Of a stretch of DNA of 39,671 nucleotides, positions 2,269-28,394 are shown piece after piece. The DNA is from an uncultured archaeon. Lineage in GTDB: Archaea > Aenigmatarchaeota > Aenigmatarchaeia > GW2011-AR5. The notes beneath the pieces are model-generated. The model made no database searches and was not told the DNA's origin. It saw only the letters and a list, made by a program, of their open reading frames with translations. Numbering within the stretch: position 1 is the stretch's first letter; every line of letters begins with the position of its first letter. The DNA is taken from positions 1-39,671 of the forward strand of contig CAYJMB010000002.1 in assembly GCA_964371455.1 (NCBI GenBank). The letters run 5' to 3'. The translations under genes and the position numbers were made by a program.

Positions 2269-4389
2269 CTAGAAAAGTTTTAATCCTGACATGATATTTT
2301 TCAGCAGCGACAGGATATGGAAATTTATCATGTAACTGCTGACAGCCCGTGCTGATGGGAGGTTTGTTAACATTCCAGTAGTTTGTACCGGCGAGTCTTT
2401 TTTGGTTTGTGATGCTGTTTTATTCTCTACTTGCGAGATGACAAGAGATGCGTTTTCTGTTGTCAGATCTATTGCATCTGCCAATACAGTTGCATTTAAT
2501 AATGACCTGCTGATTATAATTTCCACCGTCTTGTCGTATGTTTTGTTTGATTTGGCCCTTATTCTCAGATAATAGACACCTTCACTGATATCTTCTTTTA
2601 TTTTATTTTGCAGGATTAGCGTCATATTTTTTGATGCATTGAGGCTTACTGCTACAGGGTTTGGCACCCATCCACCTTCGCTGGCCAGGGAAGAGCCCCT
2701 GAACACGTAGGAATAAACAGAAATGTTTTTCCTTACATCAAAAAGATTCTTTACCATGGCTGTTGTTTTTAGCTCATCGCCTGTGACTGCTGTTTCATTG
2801 TAAGAAAGGACATCGATACCGATGGTATTTTCAGTCTGCCGGAAAGGAAGGCCACTCGTTGAAGATGAAGAACTGCTTGAAGTGCTCCCTGAGGCAGAAG
2901 ATTGCGGCGGGCAATTTGTTCCTTCGATGGTGAGGGAAGACGACACAGTTATGTCCAAACCTGAGACGAAGAGTGCATGCGAGCCGCTCTTGATAGAGCT
3001 GTCGCAGTTCTGCTTTATCTGGACAGGAACTTTTAGCCTGTACATTTTGTATTTATCATTGACGTGTACAGTGCTGACGCTACTGGATTTTTTGCCATCT
3101 TTTTCTGTCCACAAGTCTACTGCATATTTGGCTGTGTTGCCTTTGTAGATCTCTAATTCCACAAGAACAACATCTCCGAATTTTGTGATGTTGTCATGAC
3201 TGATTATTAATATTGATGATCCGTTGCTCTGGGCTGCGCCTTTTACTGCTAATGATGCTGCGGCTTCTATCTCTGTCATGTTATTACAGGTTGCGTTGAC
3301 AACTTTTGAACGGATTATGTATGCCTGGCTACCGTTCAGATCAGGAGGCGTCCAGTCGCGAGATACGGACTTATAGCATTTCATCTCTTGAGTGGTGTTG
3401 GTCTTTTCCTTTGCTGCAGCGCCAAAGAGATCCTCGATCCAGTACTCGATAGTCACGTTATGATCCTTGTTCTCGCATTTTGTGTCGTTCAGTTCGATAA
3501 AATACCGGAATGACTCCGATGCGTTGGCAAAAATTGGCGTCAGAATACGCACAGAAATAAAGCACTGCACTAGCGAGGAAAGGACAGATATCTGGGAGCA
3601 GCTGGACTGGTTTTCGTATGCGGTTGTCAAGTTCCAGCAGAGCGTCAGATTGCCTGTCGCCAGAGGATAAAAAGAAGCCAAAGTGACTGAGCAGGAGATA
3701 TTCTGGGCAAAGTTTTCTGATTTGCTGTACGTTGCATTTGTCAGATTGTACTGAAGTGTCATGTCTACACTTTCACAGGAATCAGCACTTAGATTAAATA
3801 GAGAATAATTTATATTTTCCATGAACGTTGTTGAAAAATTAACCGCAAATTTTGGCAGCTTTTTGTTTTGCGAGCCTGGCGTGGGTGTACACTCTTGCAA
3901 GGTTGAATTGGACTCGGGATAAGCGCAAAGGGTTTTGTTATTGTTGGCGCCGCCAAGGGATGAATTATAGTAAAGAGATGCTGAGTGTGTGGTGTTGGAC
4001 AGATACAATGTTTCATTATTGTTTGAGAGACCACCGCAGAGCGTGCTTGCGTTTGTGTGAAGAGCGAGGCCAGATACATTGTAGTGATTATAGGCAAGCG
4101 TGCCTGACCCACCGTCTGTGATCACAGCAAAGCCGGCAGGCGGGAGGTCAAATGTCGTGTTGCTGTAGGTTTTGTTGTCAGTCTGGTTTACAAGGCCTTT
4201 CAATAAGGAGACATTGCAGAGAGTCCAGTTTTCCAGAGAGATTGTGTCGTTTGTCGGGTTATAGATTTCTATCCATTCGTCATAGCTCTCGTTCACGGGA
4301 GGGTCGTACATCACTTCTGTGATAAGCAAAGACGCATAAGCAGGAGTGATTAAGAACAGCAACAACAAGGCCGGAAACCATGGCTGCAT
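2269..4389 (-). CDS. Secreted cell-surface protein with N-terminal lamin-tail domain (LTD), Ser-rich linker and Ig-like repeats; predicted heavily N-glycosylated
   Basis: The likely true start is M61 of the ORF (ATG at 4389-4387), giving signal peptide MQPWFPALLLLFLITPAYA. An LTD signature follows (LLITEVMYDPPVNESYDEWIEIYNPT...ISLENWTL). I count 40 N-X-S/T sequons in 706 aa, plus a poly-Ser linker SSASGSTSSSSSSSTSG. Confidence 0.75.
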   Translation of the reverse strand: MQPWFPALLLLFLITPAYASLLITEVMYDPPVNESYDEWIEIYNPTNDTISLENWTLCNVSLLKGLVNQTDNKTYSNTTFDLPPAGFAVITDGGSGTLAYNHYNVSGLALHTNASTLCGGLSNNNETLYLSNTTHSASLYYNSSLGGANNNKTLCAYPESNSTLQECTPTPGSQNKKLPKFAVNFSTTFMENINYSLFNLSADSCESVDMTLQYNLTNATYSKSENFAQNISCSVTLASFYPLATGNLTLCWNLTTAYENQSSCSQISVLSSLVQCFISVRILTPIFANASESFRYFIELNDTKCENKDHNVTIEYWIEDLFGAAAKEKTNTTQEMKCYKSVSRDWTPPDLNGSQAYIIRSKVVNATCNNMTEIEAAASLAVKGAAQSNGSSILIISHDNITKFGDVVLVELEIYKGNTAKYAVDLWTEKDGKKSSSVSTVHVNDKYKMYRLKVPVQIKQNCDSSIKSGSHALFVSGLDITVSSSLTIEGTNCPPQSSASGSTSSSSSSSTSGLPFRQTENTIGIDVLSYNETAVTGDELKTTAMVKNLFDVRKNISVYSYVFRGSSLASEGGWVPNPVAVSLNASKNMTLILQNKIKEDISEGVYYLRIRAKSNKTYDKTVEIIISRSLLNATVLADAIDLTTENASLVISQVENKTASQTKKDSPVQTTGMLTNLPSARAVSSYMINFHILSLLKNIMSGLKLF

Positions 4390-6150: not shown

Positions 6151-6897
6151 TTATTCGCACTTTGCAATAAATTTCATATTTTCTGTAACTTGGTTTCTTA
6201 TTTTTTCTACGTTATTAACTGCGAAACGTGACTGTATTTTCAGATACATTTCCAGAGGCTCCTGATGCTCTGGTTTGTAGTTGAGAGTCGTGTTGGTGCC
6301 AATGAATTCAAGCAAAGGCCAGAGATTGGTGTTCACTGCCATCCTGCTCACTTCTATCGTATTCGAAGAATCAAATCCCCAGAGCTTCGGCGAGGGACAG
6401 TGCACCTCGAGGAAGACAAAACCGGATACGGATTTTGCTTTCAGCAGCTTTCTCATGTAGTCTTCGGGAAATGATGGAGAAGCCGTTGCTGCGTACCTTG
6501 CGCTGACAAGATGTACCAGCTGCTTCTCGACATCTGATCTGGAACTGCTAGAAGATGAGCCTGCATTGTTGCAGCATACGTAGACTATATTTTCCTGAAC
6601 ATTCTTGAAAGAAGCTATGTATTTTTTGGTTGCGATATCTCCGGCAAAGACCAGTACCAACTGTCCTGTTGCTTTTGCGAGGCCTCTGGCAGCAGCGAGC
6701 GGATTTTCTGATACGATAGAGCTTAACTTCAAATATGGAGCGTTCTTTGACATCGCTCCCGGAGAAAAAACAAGAAGGAACCTTTTGTCTGCAAATGCCT
6801 GGAGCGCGAGCTTCATTGCAATCATCCAGCCCTCACCATGATCTGCAACAGTATTTCCAAAAACCTGTTTTGGCTGGACTATCAGATCAACTACCAT
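6151..6897 (-). CDS. porB: 2-oxoacid:ferredoxin oxidoreductase beta (TPP-binding) subunit-like, motif-degenerate
   Basis: PorB-like blocks are present: LVLVFAGD, NIVYVCCNN, YAATASPSFPEDYMRKLLKAK, HCPSPKLWGF, AVNTNLWPLLEF. The N-terminal Cys pair region reads VADHGEGW, and GDG...NxxxxNTG reads GDI...NNAGSSSSSS. Confidence 0.7.
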   Translation of the reverse strand: MVVDLIVQPKQVFGNTVADHGEGWMIAMKLALQAFADKRFLLVFSPGAMSKNAPYLKLSSIVSENPLAAARGLAKATGQLVLVFAGDIATKKYIASFKNVQENIVYVCCNNAGSSSSSSRSDVEKQLVHLVSARYAATASPSFPEDYMRKLLKAKSVSGFVFLEVHCPSPKLWGFDSSNTIEVSRMAVNTNLWPLLEFIGTNTTLNYKPEHQEPLEMYLKIQSRFAVNNVEKIRNQVTENMKFIAKCE

Positions 6898-6912
6898 ACA
6901 TATTACCTACAA

Positions 6913-7347
6913 TTACCTGTTTGCCATTCTTTTTAACTTATTCTTCATGTCATCTATTTTCCGGTGCAGCTCTTTTATGCGTGAGTCAAGAATGGTCTCC
7001 TGGCCTGGCAGAAAGTACCATGTGCCGAGCTCTTTATACCCTTTTCCCAGATAGACACGCTTTATAGGAAGTCCGCGGCGCGATGCCATGAGGAACAATT
7101 CATTGTGCTTGGGAAATTTGTGCATGACATGGACAGCAGCAACCGGCCCATGTAATTTCAGGAAGGTAATAAATTCATTGATGTTGCCCTGCTCAGGCTT
7201 GCGCAAGCCCTTTACCCAATGGTATACTGCTGAATAAGAAATGCCAAGCTGCTTTGCAATGTCCCTGATACCCTTGCCCTGATTGTAAAGCGCGACAGCC
7301 TCATCGTATGTCTTTCCGTAGAATTCGCGGCCTCGGCGAAGTTTCAT
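6913..7347 (-). CDS. Helix-turn-helix DNA-binding protein, function unknown
   Basis: N-terminal HTH: GIRDIAKQLGISYSAVYHWVKG. It ends 15 nt upstream of porB on the same strand. No transposase catalytic domain is present. Confidence 0.5.
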   Translation of the reverse strand: MKLRRGREFYGKTYDEAVALYNQGKGIRDIAKQLGISYSAVYHWVKGLRKPEQGNINEFITFLKLHGPVAAVHVMHKFPKHNELFLMASRRGLPIKRVYLGKGYKELGTWYFLPGQETILDSRIKELHRKIDDMKNKLKRMANR

Positions 7348-7521
7348 GGAATTAATTTGTGACTGAAAGATAAAAAGAGGCTCCGGAGCTACCCTTAATG
7401 CTCATCAGACAACAAGAAGCATCTAACGACACTTCATACGCCTTTCACACTGGGACAGTCTTCGTCATCGCCAGTGTAGATTAGGACGAAAGGGTTAAAA
7501 GGCTTTTGAAATCCAACAAGC

Positions 7522-8454
7522 ATGCAAATCGGGCCGGAAGATCAAGAACTCTATACAGATTTTTTCCGGCAAGAGCCCGTCAGCGAACTTTACGCAAACA
7601 ACTGGGCCTACATCATCCAGGCATGCCGGGGAAGTGGCGGACTTGGGCACAAATACTTCGACGGCACGACGCTTGTCAGCATAGGCAAGCATGATGGACA
7701 CTATGTGCTGGTCAGGCCGCTTGGGGCAAATCCGGTAGCTGCTGTGCAAATGCTGGCAAAAAGACTGCATAAAATTTCAAAGAAACCTGTTTATGCAAAG
7801 CACGTCTTGCCGGAGCAGGCAGCTGATTTCAAATGCATCGGCTTCAGCGACATGCGCCAATACCCATGGTCAGCTGCTTCCCCATTGGATGACGACACAT
7901 TCCCGCAAGTGGTTGTTGCTCTTGACAACATTTTTCGCGTCGAGCAGAAGGAAAGCAGAGAATTAAGGCTGAGATTGAACAGGTTTTTGAATTATGCTGC
8001 TGAAAACCTTACATTACAGGAAGCGTGCTTTTTGTTTGCGCCTGAGCTGTATAATCCGGAAAAACACCTCTATCAAAAGACGCATGCAGTGAGAGTTTTA
8101 GAGAAATGGGCCAGCAAAAACAAAGAGCTTATGGATGCGTACACTAACATGATAGAGTACCCGCCTTCAGAAGGGTTTTGCTATATCATGAGAATTGGCA
8201 TCAAGGCTAGGGGCTTCTATGTTTTTGGCAAGATAGGAGAGAGGACTGTTGGGTGCCATGCAACTATCGCTGATTACAGACAGATGCCGGGACTTTCTGA
8301 AGCAGCGCTGATGAAATGTTTTGGCTCTTTACACAACAAAGGGATAAGACGAGTAAACTTGGGAGGCTCTGAGACAGAAGCCCTGTACAAGTTCAAGCTG
8401 AAATTCCGCCCGCACGAATTAAAGGAAGCAACGCACATGGTCTATTTGCCTTAG
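7522..8454 (+). CDS. Hypothetical protein, possibly DUF2156/GNAT-fold (MprF C-terminal-like)
   Basis: Clean 310-aa ORF. The family call rests only on size and loose resemblance. Its stop codon overlaps the porA stop (convergent genes). Confidence 0.3.
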   Translation: MQIGPEDQELYTDFFRQEPVSELYANNWAYIIQACRGSGGLGHKYFDGTTLVSIGKHDGHYVLVRPLGANPVAAVQMLAKRLHKISKKPVYAKHVLPEQAADFKCIGFSDMRQYPWSAASPLDDDTFPQVVVALDNIFRVEQKESRELRLRLNRFLNYAAENLTLQEACFLFAPELYNPEKHLYQKTHAVRVLEKWASKNKELMDAYTNMIEYPPSEGFCYIMRIGIKARGFYVFGKIGERTVGCHATIADYRQMPGLSEAALMKCFGSLHNKGIRRVNLGGSETEALYKFKLKFRPHELKEATHMVYLP

Positions 8455-9488
8455 ATCCAGTAAACCTCTTCCTTCTCGGCTTTCTCCAGTTTCGCAAAGA
8501 TGTCTGAGAAATCCTTCTCTGACAGATATTTCTCCAAAGAGATGAAGCTCAGGGAAAATTTTGCCATGGGTTTAATCTCCTGATACAAGGGGGAAAATGC
8601 ACCCGAGCTGGATGCAAAATCCAGGACAGCAACTTTCTTTTCTTTCAGGATTGCCAAGGCGTTCAGAGGGAAAGGACGATAAACCCTGATTCTCACCAAC
8701 CCGACTTTCTTGCCCTGCATGCGCAGGTTGTTCACTGCGGCTCTGGCTGTGCTGCTATGGTAGCCATATGTAACAAGGAGGAGCTCGGCATCGTCTGCCT
8801 GGTATTTTTCAACTGCTGGCCAGGATCTTTTGAATTTCTTCTTCCAGTTTTCATCTATTAAAGCGGCTATTTTGAGCACACTTTCCATGGCTTTTTGCTG
8901 CTGCTGCCGGGAGTGCGCATCATAATGTCCCAGGTGTGAAGGATTTTTCATATCCAACTTATGGGGAATTTTTACTTTTGGGAGGAAATTCTTTATTATC
9001 TGGCCTGATGGCAGTGACAAAGGCTCTGAGTAGTTCATGGGACCGTCCCATGCGATAACACAGGGGAGGAGGACTTTGCTGTCCACACAAAGTCTGAAAG
9101 ACATGATGATTGTATCCAACAACTCCTGATGAGATTCACAGAAGACAATAATACAGCCTGCATCGCGCAGAGACATCACGCTCTCCGGATGGGCTGCTGC
9201 AAAAATTATGACAGGCATCCTGACTAACGCTGCTTCCTTTACTGCTGCCGGGTCCGGATGCGCGATGGGCACAAAGGCACGCTTTTCAACAGACGACGCA
9301 GCAACAGCCGCGGTTATGGCAGATGCGGCAGAGTCTGATTCCAGCACATCTGCCTGCATAAGAGGCTTAATATGTTCCACTACAGGAAATGAACTATCCT
9401 GTGCATAAGAAACAAGATTTACCATGGACAGCTGTACAGCATGAGCCACGACTTCTGGCGTAGACAACAATTCATTTTTAATTATCAT
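8451..9488 (-). CDS. porA: 2-oxoacid:ferredoxin oxidoreductase alpha subunit-like, N-terminal motifs divergent
   Basis: The likely start is MIIKNELLS (ATG 9488-9486), which overlaps the porD stop (TAATG). The C-terminal domain is well conserved (LLLVTYGYHSSTARAAVNNLRMQGKKVGLVRIRVYRPFPLNAL...VAVLD). In the N-terminal domain GNEAVA, YPITP and ESEHSA read as TPEVVA, YAQDS and ESDSAA. Confidence 0.75.
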   Translation of the reverse strand: MIIKNELLSTPEVVAHAVQLSMVNLVSYAQDSSFPVVEHIKPLMQADVLESDSAASAITAAVAASSVEKRAFVPIAHPDPAAVKEAALVRMPVIIFAAAHPESVMSLRDAGCIIVFCESHQELLDTIIMSFRLCVDSKVLLPCVIAWDGPMNYSEPLSLPSGQIIKNFLPKVKIPHKLDMKNPSHLGHYDAHSRQQQQKAMESVLKIAALIDENWKKKFKRSWPAVEKYQADDAELLLVTYGYHSSTARAAVNNLRMQGKKVGLVRIRVYRPFPLNALAILKEKKVAVLDFASSSGAFSPLYQEIKPMAKFSLSFISLEKYLSEKDFSDIFAKLEKAEKEEVYWI

Positions 9489-9751
9489 TACTTCTCCTCT
9501 ATGATGGCTGTGGTGGGACATTCCCGCAGGCAGATAAGGCAGCCATCGCATAAATCGTAGGTAATAACAGGCCAGCCTTTCTGGTTTATTGAAATGGCAT
9601 TTCTTGGGCAGAACACAACACAGTTGTAGTTCTTTTCGCATACACTCAGGTTTATCTTTGGCTTGAAAATGCGCATATCAGCGGGCTTACCCGCTTGCTG
9701 TGGGGTGTGGGGCTGAACTTTTTTCTGCTTTACTTCATGATCAGCTAGCAT
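9488..9751 (-). CDS. porD: 2-oxoacid:ferredoxin oxidoreductase delta subunit (ferredoxin-like)
   Basis: The second cluster motif CDGCLICLRECP is intact. The first is atypical (CEKNYNCVVFCP). Size is 87 aa, and the gene sits between the gamma and alpha subunits. Confidence 0.75.
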   Translation of the reverse strand: MLADHEVKQKKVQPHTPQQAGKPADMRIFKPKINLSVCEKNYNCVVFCPRNAISINQKGWPVITYDLCDGCLICLRECPTTAIIEEK

Positions 9752-9761
9752 AAATTTTCCC

Positions 9762-10238
9762 CTACTTCACATTCCTAAAGCCCTCGTCAAGGGCGAGGTG
9801 CAGCTCCTTTCTGTCGCCTACTGCAAGCTTCGCAGATTTGACTGTGATTTTGTCACAGTGCTTCACAAGCGCGCCGAGCATTACTGCGCTGGGTTCTGGC
9901 TTTCTTACTACATTCAATGCAAGGGATGTTGCATTGAGGCTGTAAACCTTCAGCTTTCTTTTTTTGATCACAGGCGATTTGGGCTTTTCTGCATTCAATA
10001 TGACTACAGACTTCTCTTTCGCGTGCTTCAGGGCTTCCTGGAAATTCTGAGAGTCCAGAAGCAAGAGGAAATCTGGGAATTCCTCCTGCTTTGAGAGGAT
10101 GGGCTTTTTGTCCAGTTTGACGTATCCTTTCCGAGGCAGGCAGAACGATTGGACAAACAGGCCAGAGAAATAACATGCTTTAGCAATCATTTTTGTCAGA
10201 GATTCCGGCTCCAGACTTTCAATCTTTATCACTAGCAT
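9762..10238 (-). CDS. porG: 2-oxoacid:ferredoxin oxidoreductase gamma subunit-like (divergent)
   Basis: 158 aa, 10 nt upstream of porD, with gamma-like layout (…KMIAKACYFSGLFVQSF…PDFLLLLD…). The usual GRGGQG motif is absent. Confidence 0.6.
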   Translation of the reverse strand: MLVIKIESLEPESLTKMIAKACYFSGLFVQSFCLPRKGYVKLDKKPILSKQEEFPDFLLLLDSQNFQEALKHAKEKSVVILNAEKPKSPVIKKRKLKVYSLNATSLALNVVRKPEPSAVMLGALVKHCDKITVKSAKLAVGDRKELHLALDEGFRNVK

Positions 10239-10333
10239 AACGTAATAATTGGTGACTAATTGATATATAGTTATGCTGCAAGCAAGGAGGTTCGTATCTT
10301 TTGAGCAAGGACGAACTCAAATAAAGAACGCAT

Positions 10334-10627
10334 TTACTGGGCAGTCGGCGTTTCTTCCATTTCGCTGGTCACTGGCTGGATGTGCTTTATTATTACTATG
10401 TCGCCTATGCTCTGGACCATGCTGTAGGGGACTATGACGCCTTTCTTGTCGCCCACAAGGTCTGCCAAGAAGGAGCCGCGCACAGCATCCACGACCAGCG
10501 ACTTGACGCGGAATTTCTCCAGGTCCAGTCCTATGTCCAGGACTTTTCCGGAATATACACCTCTGTGGGTGAACACGTCTTTTCTTGTTATGTCTGAGAA
10601 ACTTTTCACATTTACTGGCATTACCAC
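10334..10627 (-). CDS. PRC-barrel domain protein
   Basis: PRC-barrel pattern: ITRKDVFTHRGVYSGKVLDIGLDLEKFRVKSLVV...GVIVPYSMVQSIGDIVII. SD GGAGGT lies 8 nt upstream of the ATG. Confidence 0.75.
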   Translation of the reverse strand: MVMPVNVKSFSDITRKDVFTHRGVYSGKVLDIGLDLEKFRVKSLVVDAVRGSFLADLVGDKKGVIVPYSMVQSIGDIVIIKHIQPVTSEMEETPTAQ

Positions 10628-28139: not shown

Positions 28140-28394
28140 CTAAACAATCTTCTCGCCTGTTTCTTTGTTTATGATGTGTATGACAACTGCCGGGCAGCCT
28201 TCTGCTGCCTGCTTGTTGATTTCCAAGTCTTTTTCGTCTATCTCCCTTTCAAACTGGCCTTCTGCTACTTCTTTGCCGTCCACAAGATCAGCTTTGCCAT
28301 CCTGGTTCATGACCCAATGATCTGGCGCTACGGCTGCGCAGACACCGGCGCCGATGCAGCCGTTTCTGTCGTATTGGATAATATATTTTCCCAT
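28140..28394 (-). CDS. Small mono-cluster ferredoxin
   Basis: YDRNGCIGAGVCAAVAPDHW...AAEGCPAVVIHI, the pattern of single-cluster Fer4_15-like ferredoxins. Confidence 0.8.
   Translation of the reverse strand: MGKYIIQYDRNGCIGAGVCAAVAPDHWVMNQDGKADLVDGKEVAEGQFEREIDEKDLEINKQAAEGCPAVVIHIINKETGEKIV

Follow-up and report, generated by a model that had tools for sequence, protein, structure and literature searches.

The locus described here raises the question of whether genes that resemble those for a four-subunit 2-oxoacid:ferredoxin oxidoreductase (OFOR) still encode such an enzyme. It lies on a 39,671-nucleotide (nt) stretch of DNA, referred to here as the window, which is contig C2 of a metagenome-assembled genome (MAG) of an uncultured archaeon of the phylum Aenigmatarchaeota (0.886 Mb in 124 contigs, 73% complete). 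On the minus strand of the window, gamma-, delta- and alpha-like genes are followed by gene X, which encodes a helix-turn-helix (HTH) protein, and then by a beta-like gene; a plus-strand gene converges on alpha. The original prediction had described the set as a pyruvate:ferredoxin oxidoreductase (POR) both split and degenerate in its motifs, and had left two readings: a POR without catalytic activity that serves some other role, or a highly divergent enzyme. Of these, the former is supported by the loss of motifs, by the orthologues, by the selection acting on the genes and by the presence of a parallel OFOR. We hold with moderate confidence that these genes, which derive from porCDAB, are kept as a folded, probably assembled, non-catalytic pseudo-OFOR that would scaffold its iron-sulfur (Fe-S) subunit, delta.

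All four proteins match POR families in Pfam and NCBIfam, each below the curated NCBIfam cutoff. The alpha-like protein scores 151 bits against a cutoff of 550 for PorA_Arch, and the beta-like protein scores 102 bits against 405 for PorB, the match covering residues 133 to 243 only; the gamma- and delta-like proteins fall short of the PorC_KorC and PorD_KorD cutoffs (Table 1). Profile matches, matches to Protein Data Bank (PDB) sequences and a model of beta show that the homologous domains I, II, III, V and VI are present with the family fold. In pyruvate:ferredoxin oxidoreductases of the PFOR type, domains I and VI bind thiamine pyrophosphate (TPP) and pyruvate, domain VI holds the proximal cluster and domain III binds coenzyme A (CoA); domains I, II, III and VI are essential (PMC13768988). 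Against canonical PorA and PorB (approximately 383 to 403 and 290 to 314 amino acids [aa], respectively), the window alpha and beta, at 345 and 248 aa, are well shorter, and gamma and delta (158 and 87 aa) are shorter too.

Motifs were judged by alignment to canonical PorB proteins, to 9bt4 and to 1b0p. In beta, the CxGCG block reads D19-H-G-E22-G, (P/S)GC reads SPGA48 and PCP reads P168-S169-P170. None of the four Cys ligands of the proximal [4Fe-4S] cluster is left, their places being taken by D19, E22, A48 and S169, and the same holds for nine orthologues in the window's clade. The original prediction had listed the changes in the Cys block and in SPGA correctly and had missed that the fourth ligand, in PCP, is gone as well. 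It was also right about the TPP motif: GDG reads G86-D87-I88, and N110-N111 is followed by a poly-Ser stretch and by the deletion of an active-site loop of approximately 20 residues. The spacing of GDG-X(n)-NN is four residues shorter than usual, with D87 and N110/N111 conserved. Pfam TPP_enzyme_C gave no match to beta.

Residue roles in alpha were mapped by aligning Methanosarcina acetivorans PorA (9bt4_B) to Desulfovibrio africanus PFOR (1b0p). The Thr of YPITP corresponds to Thr31, the second Glu of ESE to Glu64 and the Arg of NR to Arg114. According to structural work on PFOR, Glu64 activates TPP, and Thr31 and Arg114 bind the substrate carboxylate. In the window alpha, YPITP reads YAQDS, with Asp31 in place of Thr31, and ESE reads ESD, with Asp52 in place of Glu64 (Pro in the orthologous locus L006); both changes had been predicted. 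NR and the SAPINIWNDHQD loop, which carries the DHxD motif, are replaced by AH100P with a 10-residue deletion, and His100 stands where Arg114 would be. Thus, neither the TPP-activating Glu nor the substrate-binding residues and their loop are present. In gamma, the Gly-rich GxGGQG loop of the CoA-binding domain (GRGGQG) is replaced or deleted, as had been noted (IKIE, a three-residue gap and then SLEPES in the alignment), and the ERRG motif is also absent; the Gly-rich loop is retained in L008, L025, L026 and L029. No motif was seen to be present but shifted, either in the profile alignments or in a full-length structural match. As judged from these alignments, every residue class needed for OFOR chemistry appears to be missing or altered: the four Cys, Glu64, Thr31, Arg114, the Gly-rich CoA loop and the beta loop. 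Since these essential classes are lost, and lost in the same way in the orthologues, the complex is most likely non-catalytic as an OFOR.

The remainder of the proteins is well preserved, as the original prediction had also maintained, with alpha domain II and the C-terminal half of beta being near canonical. Alpha domain II matches PFOR_II (Table 1), and the alpha profile matches 9bt4_B with an E value of 5.8e-50. The C-terminal half of beta is approximately 45 to 50% identical to M. acetivorans PorB (9bt4_C). In an AlphaFold2 (AF2) model of beta (pLDDT, 79.8; pTM, 0.83), disorder is limited to the first five residues and the poly-Ser loop. The model superposes over its full length on 5c4i_C (TM score, 0.83) and 9bt4_C (TM score, 0.77). 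The beta fold is therefore predicted to be intact.

A search with beta recovered nine orthologues with 49 to 62% identity, all of which share every loss, plus one intermediate form. Orthologous loci are spread across one Aenigmatarchaeota family, from which eleven further loci were examined, and their synteny is conserved: a PRC-barrel gene, gamma-delta-alpha, X, beta, and genes for an S-adenosylmethionine synthetase, an LTD protein, a metallophosphoesterase and an Lhr helicase. The ratio of nonsynonymous to synonymous substitution rates (dN/dS, or omega) was taken from two pairs of loci, L004-L010 and L004-L011, as most other pairs are synonymously saturated. In these two pairs (dS, 0.2 to 1.5), dN/dS is 0.085 to 0.19 for each of gamma, delta, alpha, X and beta. 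The N-terminal halves of alpha and beta, which formerly held the cofactors, have an omega of 0.08 to 0.13, the same as that of the C-terminal halves. The POR-like genes are not pseudogenes, and purifying selection acts on every subunit and extends to the halves that used to bind cofactors.

All four genes are present, with all frames open, in 17 of the 17 loci examined from the window's family (f1) and clade. Synonymous sites are saturated between genera, and the proteins remain 50 to 70% identical. No POR-like gene lies beside X in the loci fetched from families f5, f7 and f8 of the same order, and among eight f7 genomes a search for beta-like genes yielded nothing in seven and only a weak partial match in the other. 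That the four genes are retained or lost together argues for a complex.

The neighborhoods of X from 20 genomes of the order were annotated with hidden Markov models (HMMs) built from the window's clade. In family f2 (L035 and L036), gamma, delta, alpha and beta are contiguous, X lies outside the cluster, and the proteins have canonical lengths (383 to 389 aa for alpha and 300 to 303 aa for beta). All four beta Cys, GDG, the long loop, Arg114 and the DHxD loop are present. These porCDAB genes are orthologous to the window set by tree and synteny, and X and a structured RNA (see below) are their neighbors. In both f2 loci, alpha is already without Glu at the Glu64 position, reading ESP instead of ESE; this could reflect a two-residue shift in the alignment or an enzyme that was already unusual in the order as a whole. 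In family f1, X always lies between alpha and beta, sometimes inverted, and the 20-residue beta loop is always missing. Most f1 genera keep CxGCG, the PCP Cys and GDG, with the third Cys varying between C, E, D and S; in most of them YPITP reads FPAPLS and the Glu64 position is Gln. The gamma Gly-rich loop and the alpha Arg loop have been lost in several genera. All four Cys have been lost twice, once in the window clade and once in genus g17, the two groups being split by a branch with SH-aLRT support of 96 in a tree of concatenated alpha and beta. This second loss suggests that the cluster is dispensable for the present role of the complex. The stem branch to the window clade is long, at 0.48 substitutions per site, and is followed by conservation. 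In family f3, the beta genes are shortened (202 to 226 aa) and occasionally carry in-frame stops (G054). On this comparison, the window genus is the most degenerate, yet still conserved, end of a family-wide gradient.

A canonical OFOR is encoded elsewhere in the same genome. Contig C73 of the MAG carries a canonical gamma-alpha fusion, KorA, with GNEA, YPMTP and EDE motifs intact, and a tblastn search with the KorB of G002, a congener, showed that the first 34 codons of korB, 91% identical to those of the congener, reach the end of this 3.3-kb contig. Complete KorAB was found in G005 and G002, and in nearly all of 61 relatives a canonical alpha, of either the 380- to 390-aa type or the 600- to 620-aa fusion type, occurs beside the degenerate one. 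The presence of a canonical OFOR in this genome and in its relatives indicates that the catalytic job is covered elsewhere, and a separate enzyme, of the KorAB type or with four subunits, is the most likely source of the real OFOR activity. The working OFOR of the window's genome is of the same delta-less type as the KorAB of Sulfurisphaera tokodaii (5B46). Inteins were encountered in this search. The KorB of G002 (L089, positions 2395 to 4317, minus strand) has a LAGLIDADG intein placed exactly at the GIGC cluster-ligand Cys. The MAG's own KorB, cut by the contig end after 34 codons (C73, positions 3166 to 3267), may perhaps be cut there also owing to an intein, and intein-like matches were seen on its contigs C13, C10 and C8 as well.

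Delta is the subunit in which cofactor motifs persist. As predicted, one of its two cluster motifs is atypical: motif 1 reads C38-x5-C44-x3-C48-P, Asn41 replacing the second Cys, and this three-Cys pattern is compatible with a [3Fe-4S] cluster. Motif 2 (C68xxC71xxC74xxxC78P) is complete. C44, C48, C68, C71, C74 and C78 are invariant in six orthologues, and the combined pattern Cx5CxxxCP plus CxxCxxCxxxCP is common to most of the family. Ten genomes from the family were compared, and in most of them delta is either the sole dicluster-ferredoxin domain or the best one; one or two other weak ferredoxin matches also occur in relatives. In a regular-expression scan of the MAG, delta was the only open reading frame (ORF) with CxxCxxCxxxCP. 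The idea that delta is the sole ferredoxin was dropped when tblastn found a small Fer4_13/15-type ferredoxin at positions 28143 to 28385 of the window (minus strand). The first motif of this small protein is CxxAxxC, a three-Cys, [3Fe-4S]-like motif.

Of the four subunits, delta thus appears to be alone in still being constrained as a cofactor binder: it has a full [4Fe-4S] motif as well as a [3Fe-4S]-like motif of three Cys. This remaining constraint on its Cys residues leads us to favor a scaffolded, 7Fe-ferredoxin-like module. The complex would be a scaffold that holds or presents delta as an electron carrier or redox module, for which the genome's other OFOR, the two-subunit KorAB that has no delta of its own, would be a plausible partner. 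Alpha, beta and gamma may have become entrenched because delta relies on them in order to fold and dock. In Sulfolobus, a 7Fe ferredoxin serves as the acceptor of the OFOR, and the window delta resembles a 7Fe ferredoxin in its three-Cys plus four-Cys pattern. Unlike that protein, which is small and free, the window module would sit in a dead alpha-beta-gamma scaffold.

Several observations weigh against this interpretation. Genomes in which a canonical four-subunit OFOR comes complete with a delta likewise retain the degenerate genes, so that the link to KorAB is not exclusive. The small single-cluster ferredoxin in the window means that delta is not the only possible electron carrier. L008, L027 and L037 have lost further delta Cys yet keep the complex. 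Beta still conserves Asp87 and Asn110/111, the residues of its TPP motif that serve as Mg-diphosphate ligands, and some diphosphate ligand might still bind there. Finally, the motifs that replace the canonical ones are themselves kept within the clade (GEG in 8 of 9, HCPSP in 9 of 9 and NN(A/G)GS in 8 of 9 sequences, with D87 invariant; also SPG[AS] and GD[IV]), which could point to a ligand site that has been rebuilt, and so to more than a scaffold.

This last point is the basis of the best-surviving alternative, in which the protein has been neofunctionalized, the scaffold having been rebuilt around the old TPP and cluster pocket for a new ligand or for a non-redox, cluster-independent reaction. 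Besides the conserved replacement residues, it would account for former cofactor halves that are as constrained as the rest and for the long stem branch with conservation afterwards. The position of Glu64, however, is Asp in three clade members, Pro in L006 and masked (X) in L010, and it is Gln, Val, Ala or Arg in other genera, a spread that reveals no shared catalytic solution. Apart from its first five residues, the beta model is of low confidence only in the poly-Ser loop, and no candidate reaction or pathway neighbor was found. On balance we consider neofunctionalization unlikely, while ranking it first among the alternatives. A specific proposal of this kind, which we regard as rather doubtful, is that GEG, SPG[AS], GD[IV], the Ser-rich loop and PSP form, together with Asp87 and Asn110/111, a rebuilt pocket for a new diphosphate-containing or metal ligand, the OFOR being no longer a redox enzyme. 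If true, this pocket would represent the first OFOR-derived sensor or non-redox enzyme, and it might tie the complex to the unit formed by X and the structured RNA.

The preferred reading, that of a non-catalytic scaffold for delta, also has to accommodate the interrupted order of the genes. The layout given in the original prediction, with gamma, delta and alpha split from beta by a convergent gene and an HTH gene, agrees with the ORF coordinates (Table 1). Like PorCDAB (M. acetivorans POR, 9BT4; oxalate oxidoreductase, 5C4I), the window set has four homologous subunits in the order gamma-delta-alpha and, after an interval, beta. It differs in that the operon is interrupted, the proximal Cys, GDG and GRGGQG are absent, the beta loop is deleted and delta motif 1 has three Cys. 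Instead of a contiguous porC-porD-porA-porB operon, the usual OFOR gene order being that of the PFOR review (PMC13768988), the convergent gene, the RNA and X part alpha from beta. The alpha ORF is open to position 9641; the ATG at 9488 overlaps the delta stop codon as ATGA, and orthologues begin there. The true start is almost certainly this ATG, giving a protein of 345 aa. A gap of 15 nt lies between X and beta. TATA-like boxes are conserved approximately 30 nt upstream of both gamma and X and suggest two transcription units, gamma-delta-alpha and X-beta.

Table 1. Features of the POR-like locus in the window, listed in the direction of minus-strand transcription
Feature	Coordinates	Strand	Evidence
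TATA-like box ATAACTATATAT, putative promoter	10263..10274	-	Approximately 30 nt upstream of gamma ATG; kept in 5 orthologous loci
Gamma-like (PorC / domain III), 158 aa	9762..10238	-	PF01558, 4.5e-11; PorC_KorC (TIGR02175), 45 bits versus cutoff of 81 bits
Delta-like (PorD / domain V), ferredoxin type, 87 aa	9488..9751	-	PorD_KorD (TIGR02179), 58.7 bits versus cutoff of 60.05 bits
Alpha-like (PorA / domains I and II), 345 aa	8451..9488	-	PorA_Arch, 151 bits; PFOR_II, 2.6e-17
LPG_synthase_C / DUF2156-like gene, 310 aa	7522..8454	+	PF09924, 1.3e-06
Structured RNA, box C/D-like	7375..7474	-	Covariance model and covariation
X, homeodomain-like HTH protein, 144 aa	6913..7347	-	HTH_23, 6.7e-08
Beta-like (PorB / domain VI), 248 aa	6151..6897	-	PorB, 102 bits; AF2 model matching 5c4i_C and 9bt4_C

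X was found in 60 of the 61 genomes of the order and in none elsewhere among 300 genomes of the phylum, and is thus a core gene of this order alone. An AF2 model of X (pLDDT, 84.7) has an N-terminal three-helix HTH resembling Cbp2, a winged-helix-like middle part and a long C-terminal helix of the coiled-coil kind. A fold search of this model against the PDB returned nothing significant, the best matches being Cbp2 (2lvs), IstA, ScpB and MarR, all with E values of approximately 0.2. The possibility that X is a fifth OFOR subunit or a dedicated regulator was downgraded, as X occurs in 60 of 61 genomes, some of them from families lacking POR-like genes, and in f2 sits outside porCDAB.

The RNA element was found by comparing the sequences upstream of X. 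With a covariance model it was detected as one copy per genome in 37 of the 61 relatives, on the same strand as X and usually 15 to 85 nt upstream of it, including in families where X is away from the POR-like genes. It has a terminal GGC/GCC stem, a GAUGA box, internal xxGA and xAUGA boxes and a D box, which is CGGA in the window clade and CUGA in most relatives. Across 30 distinct sequences, 88.6% of cells are paired, a figure that falls to 25 to 43% once the partners are displaced by sliding. Compensatory changes are seen at eleven pairs, and 500 shuffles produced no values as high as those observed. The alignment was fitted to the model, which biases it toward structure, but the margin is large. 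The order C (GAUGA), D' (xxGA), C' (xAUGA) and D (CUGA), the terminal stem and the K-turn-like geometry are those of archaeal box C/D small RNAs. Unlike in those RNAs, the spacers are 15 to 16 nt instead of 12 and pair, with covariation, with each other, and CGGA stands for CUGA in the window clade. There was no match in Rfam. Comparison with the 16S and 23S rRNAs of two relatives (G005 and G016) gave no complementarity of 10 nt or more and only chance-level matches of 8 to 9 nt; no rRNA genes were found in the MAG itself. A palindrome, GCTCCGGAGC, was considered as an operator for X and rejected: it stands anywhere between 15 and 545 nt from X, and it makes up the 3' strand of one of the RNA's covarying helices.

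Taken across the loci, the split is an old, conserved rearrangement that placed the RNA-plus-X unit between alpha and beta; it gives no sign of decay. The age of the split, the order-wide distribution of X with its upstream RNA, the later insertion of the convergent gene and the gradient within the family had all gone unnoticed in the original prediction. The split nevertheless invites a regulatory interpretation, in which delta or the old pocket would let the pseudo-OFOR sense a metabolite or the redox state and modulate X, and perhaps the adjacent K-turn RNA. The constancy of the arrangement speaks for this, given that X lies between alpha and beta in all f1 loci, remains beside beta even if inverted, overlaps its neighbor by start and stop codons in L008, L033 and L034 and is 15 nt from beta in the window. 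However, families f5, f7 and f8, which lack POR-like genes, possess both X and the RNA, and in f2 the two lie outside the contiguous porCDAB. Since X and the RNA are independent of the POR-like genes in other families, old synteny explains the linkage and X needs no complex, and we consider a regulatory role improbable.

We likewise give little credence, and slightly less than to regulation, to the notion that the locus is a relic without real function, decaying slowly, with the loss seen in f5, f7 and f8 as its end-point. The gradient of motif loss across genera, the complete loss in several families and the shortened f3 beta genes (202 to 226 aa), with in-frame stops in G054, are what such decay would produce. 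Against this stand the dN/dS values of 0.08 to 0.19 at dS of 0.2 to 1.5, the open frames in 17 loci, proteins that remain 50 to 70% identical despite synonymous saturation and the reduced size of these genomes (approximately 1 Mb), as such genomes quickly lose useless DNA. That the window encodes a very divergent but still active OFOR we regard as highly improbable: in its favor are the full set of four subunits, a beta fold predicted to be intact, the retention of D87 and N111 and a literature that counts the "por" genes of Aenigmarchaeota as a functional pyruvate/acetyl-CoA step (PMC8407114), but the proximal cluster, which is called essential (PMC13768988), has no Cys left, Glu64, Thr31, Arg114 and the CoA loop are gone, and TPP_enzyme_C is undetected.

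A non-catalytic complex bears on how such genes are read in genome data. Genome surveys and metabolic reconstructions that count the "por" of Aenigmarchaeota and other DPANN archaea as working are probably wrong for genes of the window type. Across the whole family, the status of por genes as OFORs runs from doubtful to clearly dead, and they should not be given this function by annotation pipelines. Our search of the literature found no paper pairing OFORs with pseudoenzymes, and a 2026 review of PFOR mentions no inactive or DPANN forms (PMC13768988). The family offers a natural series that runs from a near-canonical enzyme to a cofactor-less complex, with two independent losses of the whole cluster, under purifying selection and in genomes of approximately 1 Mb. 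Such a series should be useful for asking why multisubunit pseudoenzymes persist, for example, through entrenchment around an Fe-S subunit. The comparison also uncovered an order-specific pair, consisting of the box C/D-like RNA and the tandem-HTH protein X, for which no description was found in Rfam or the PDB.

Two neighboring genes deserve mention. The DUF2156-like gene overlaps alpha by 4 nt. It occurs at the same place in L004/L005 and L011 and is absent from L006/L007, L008, L010 and L024; this distribution indicates that it is a later, lineage-specific insertion and not part of the POR-like unit. DUF2156 (LPG_synthase_C) has an aminoacyl-tRNA-dependent transferase fold. The PRC-barrel gene lies directly upstream of gamma (positions 10334 to 10627, minus strand) and is 88 to 90% identical where the POR-like subunits are 57 to 70% identical, with 67% identity to its counterpart in L008. 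It still adjoins X in L040, where the POR-like genes are deleted.

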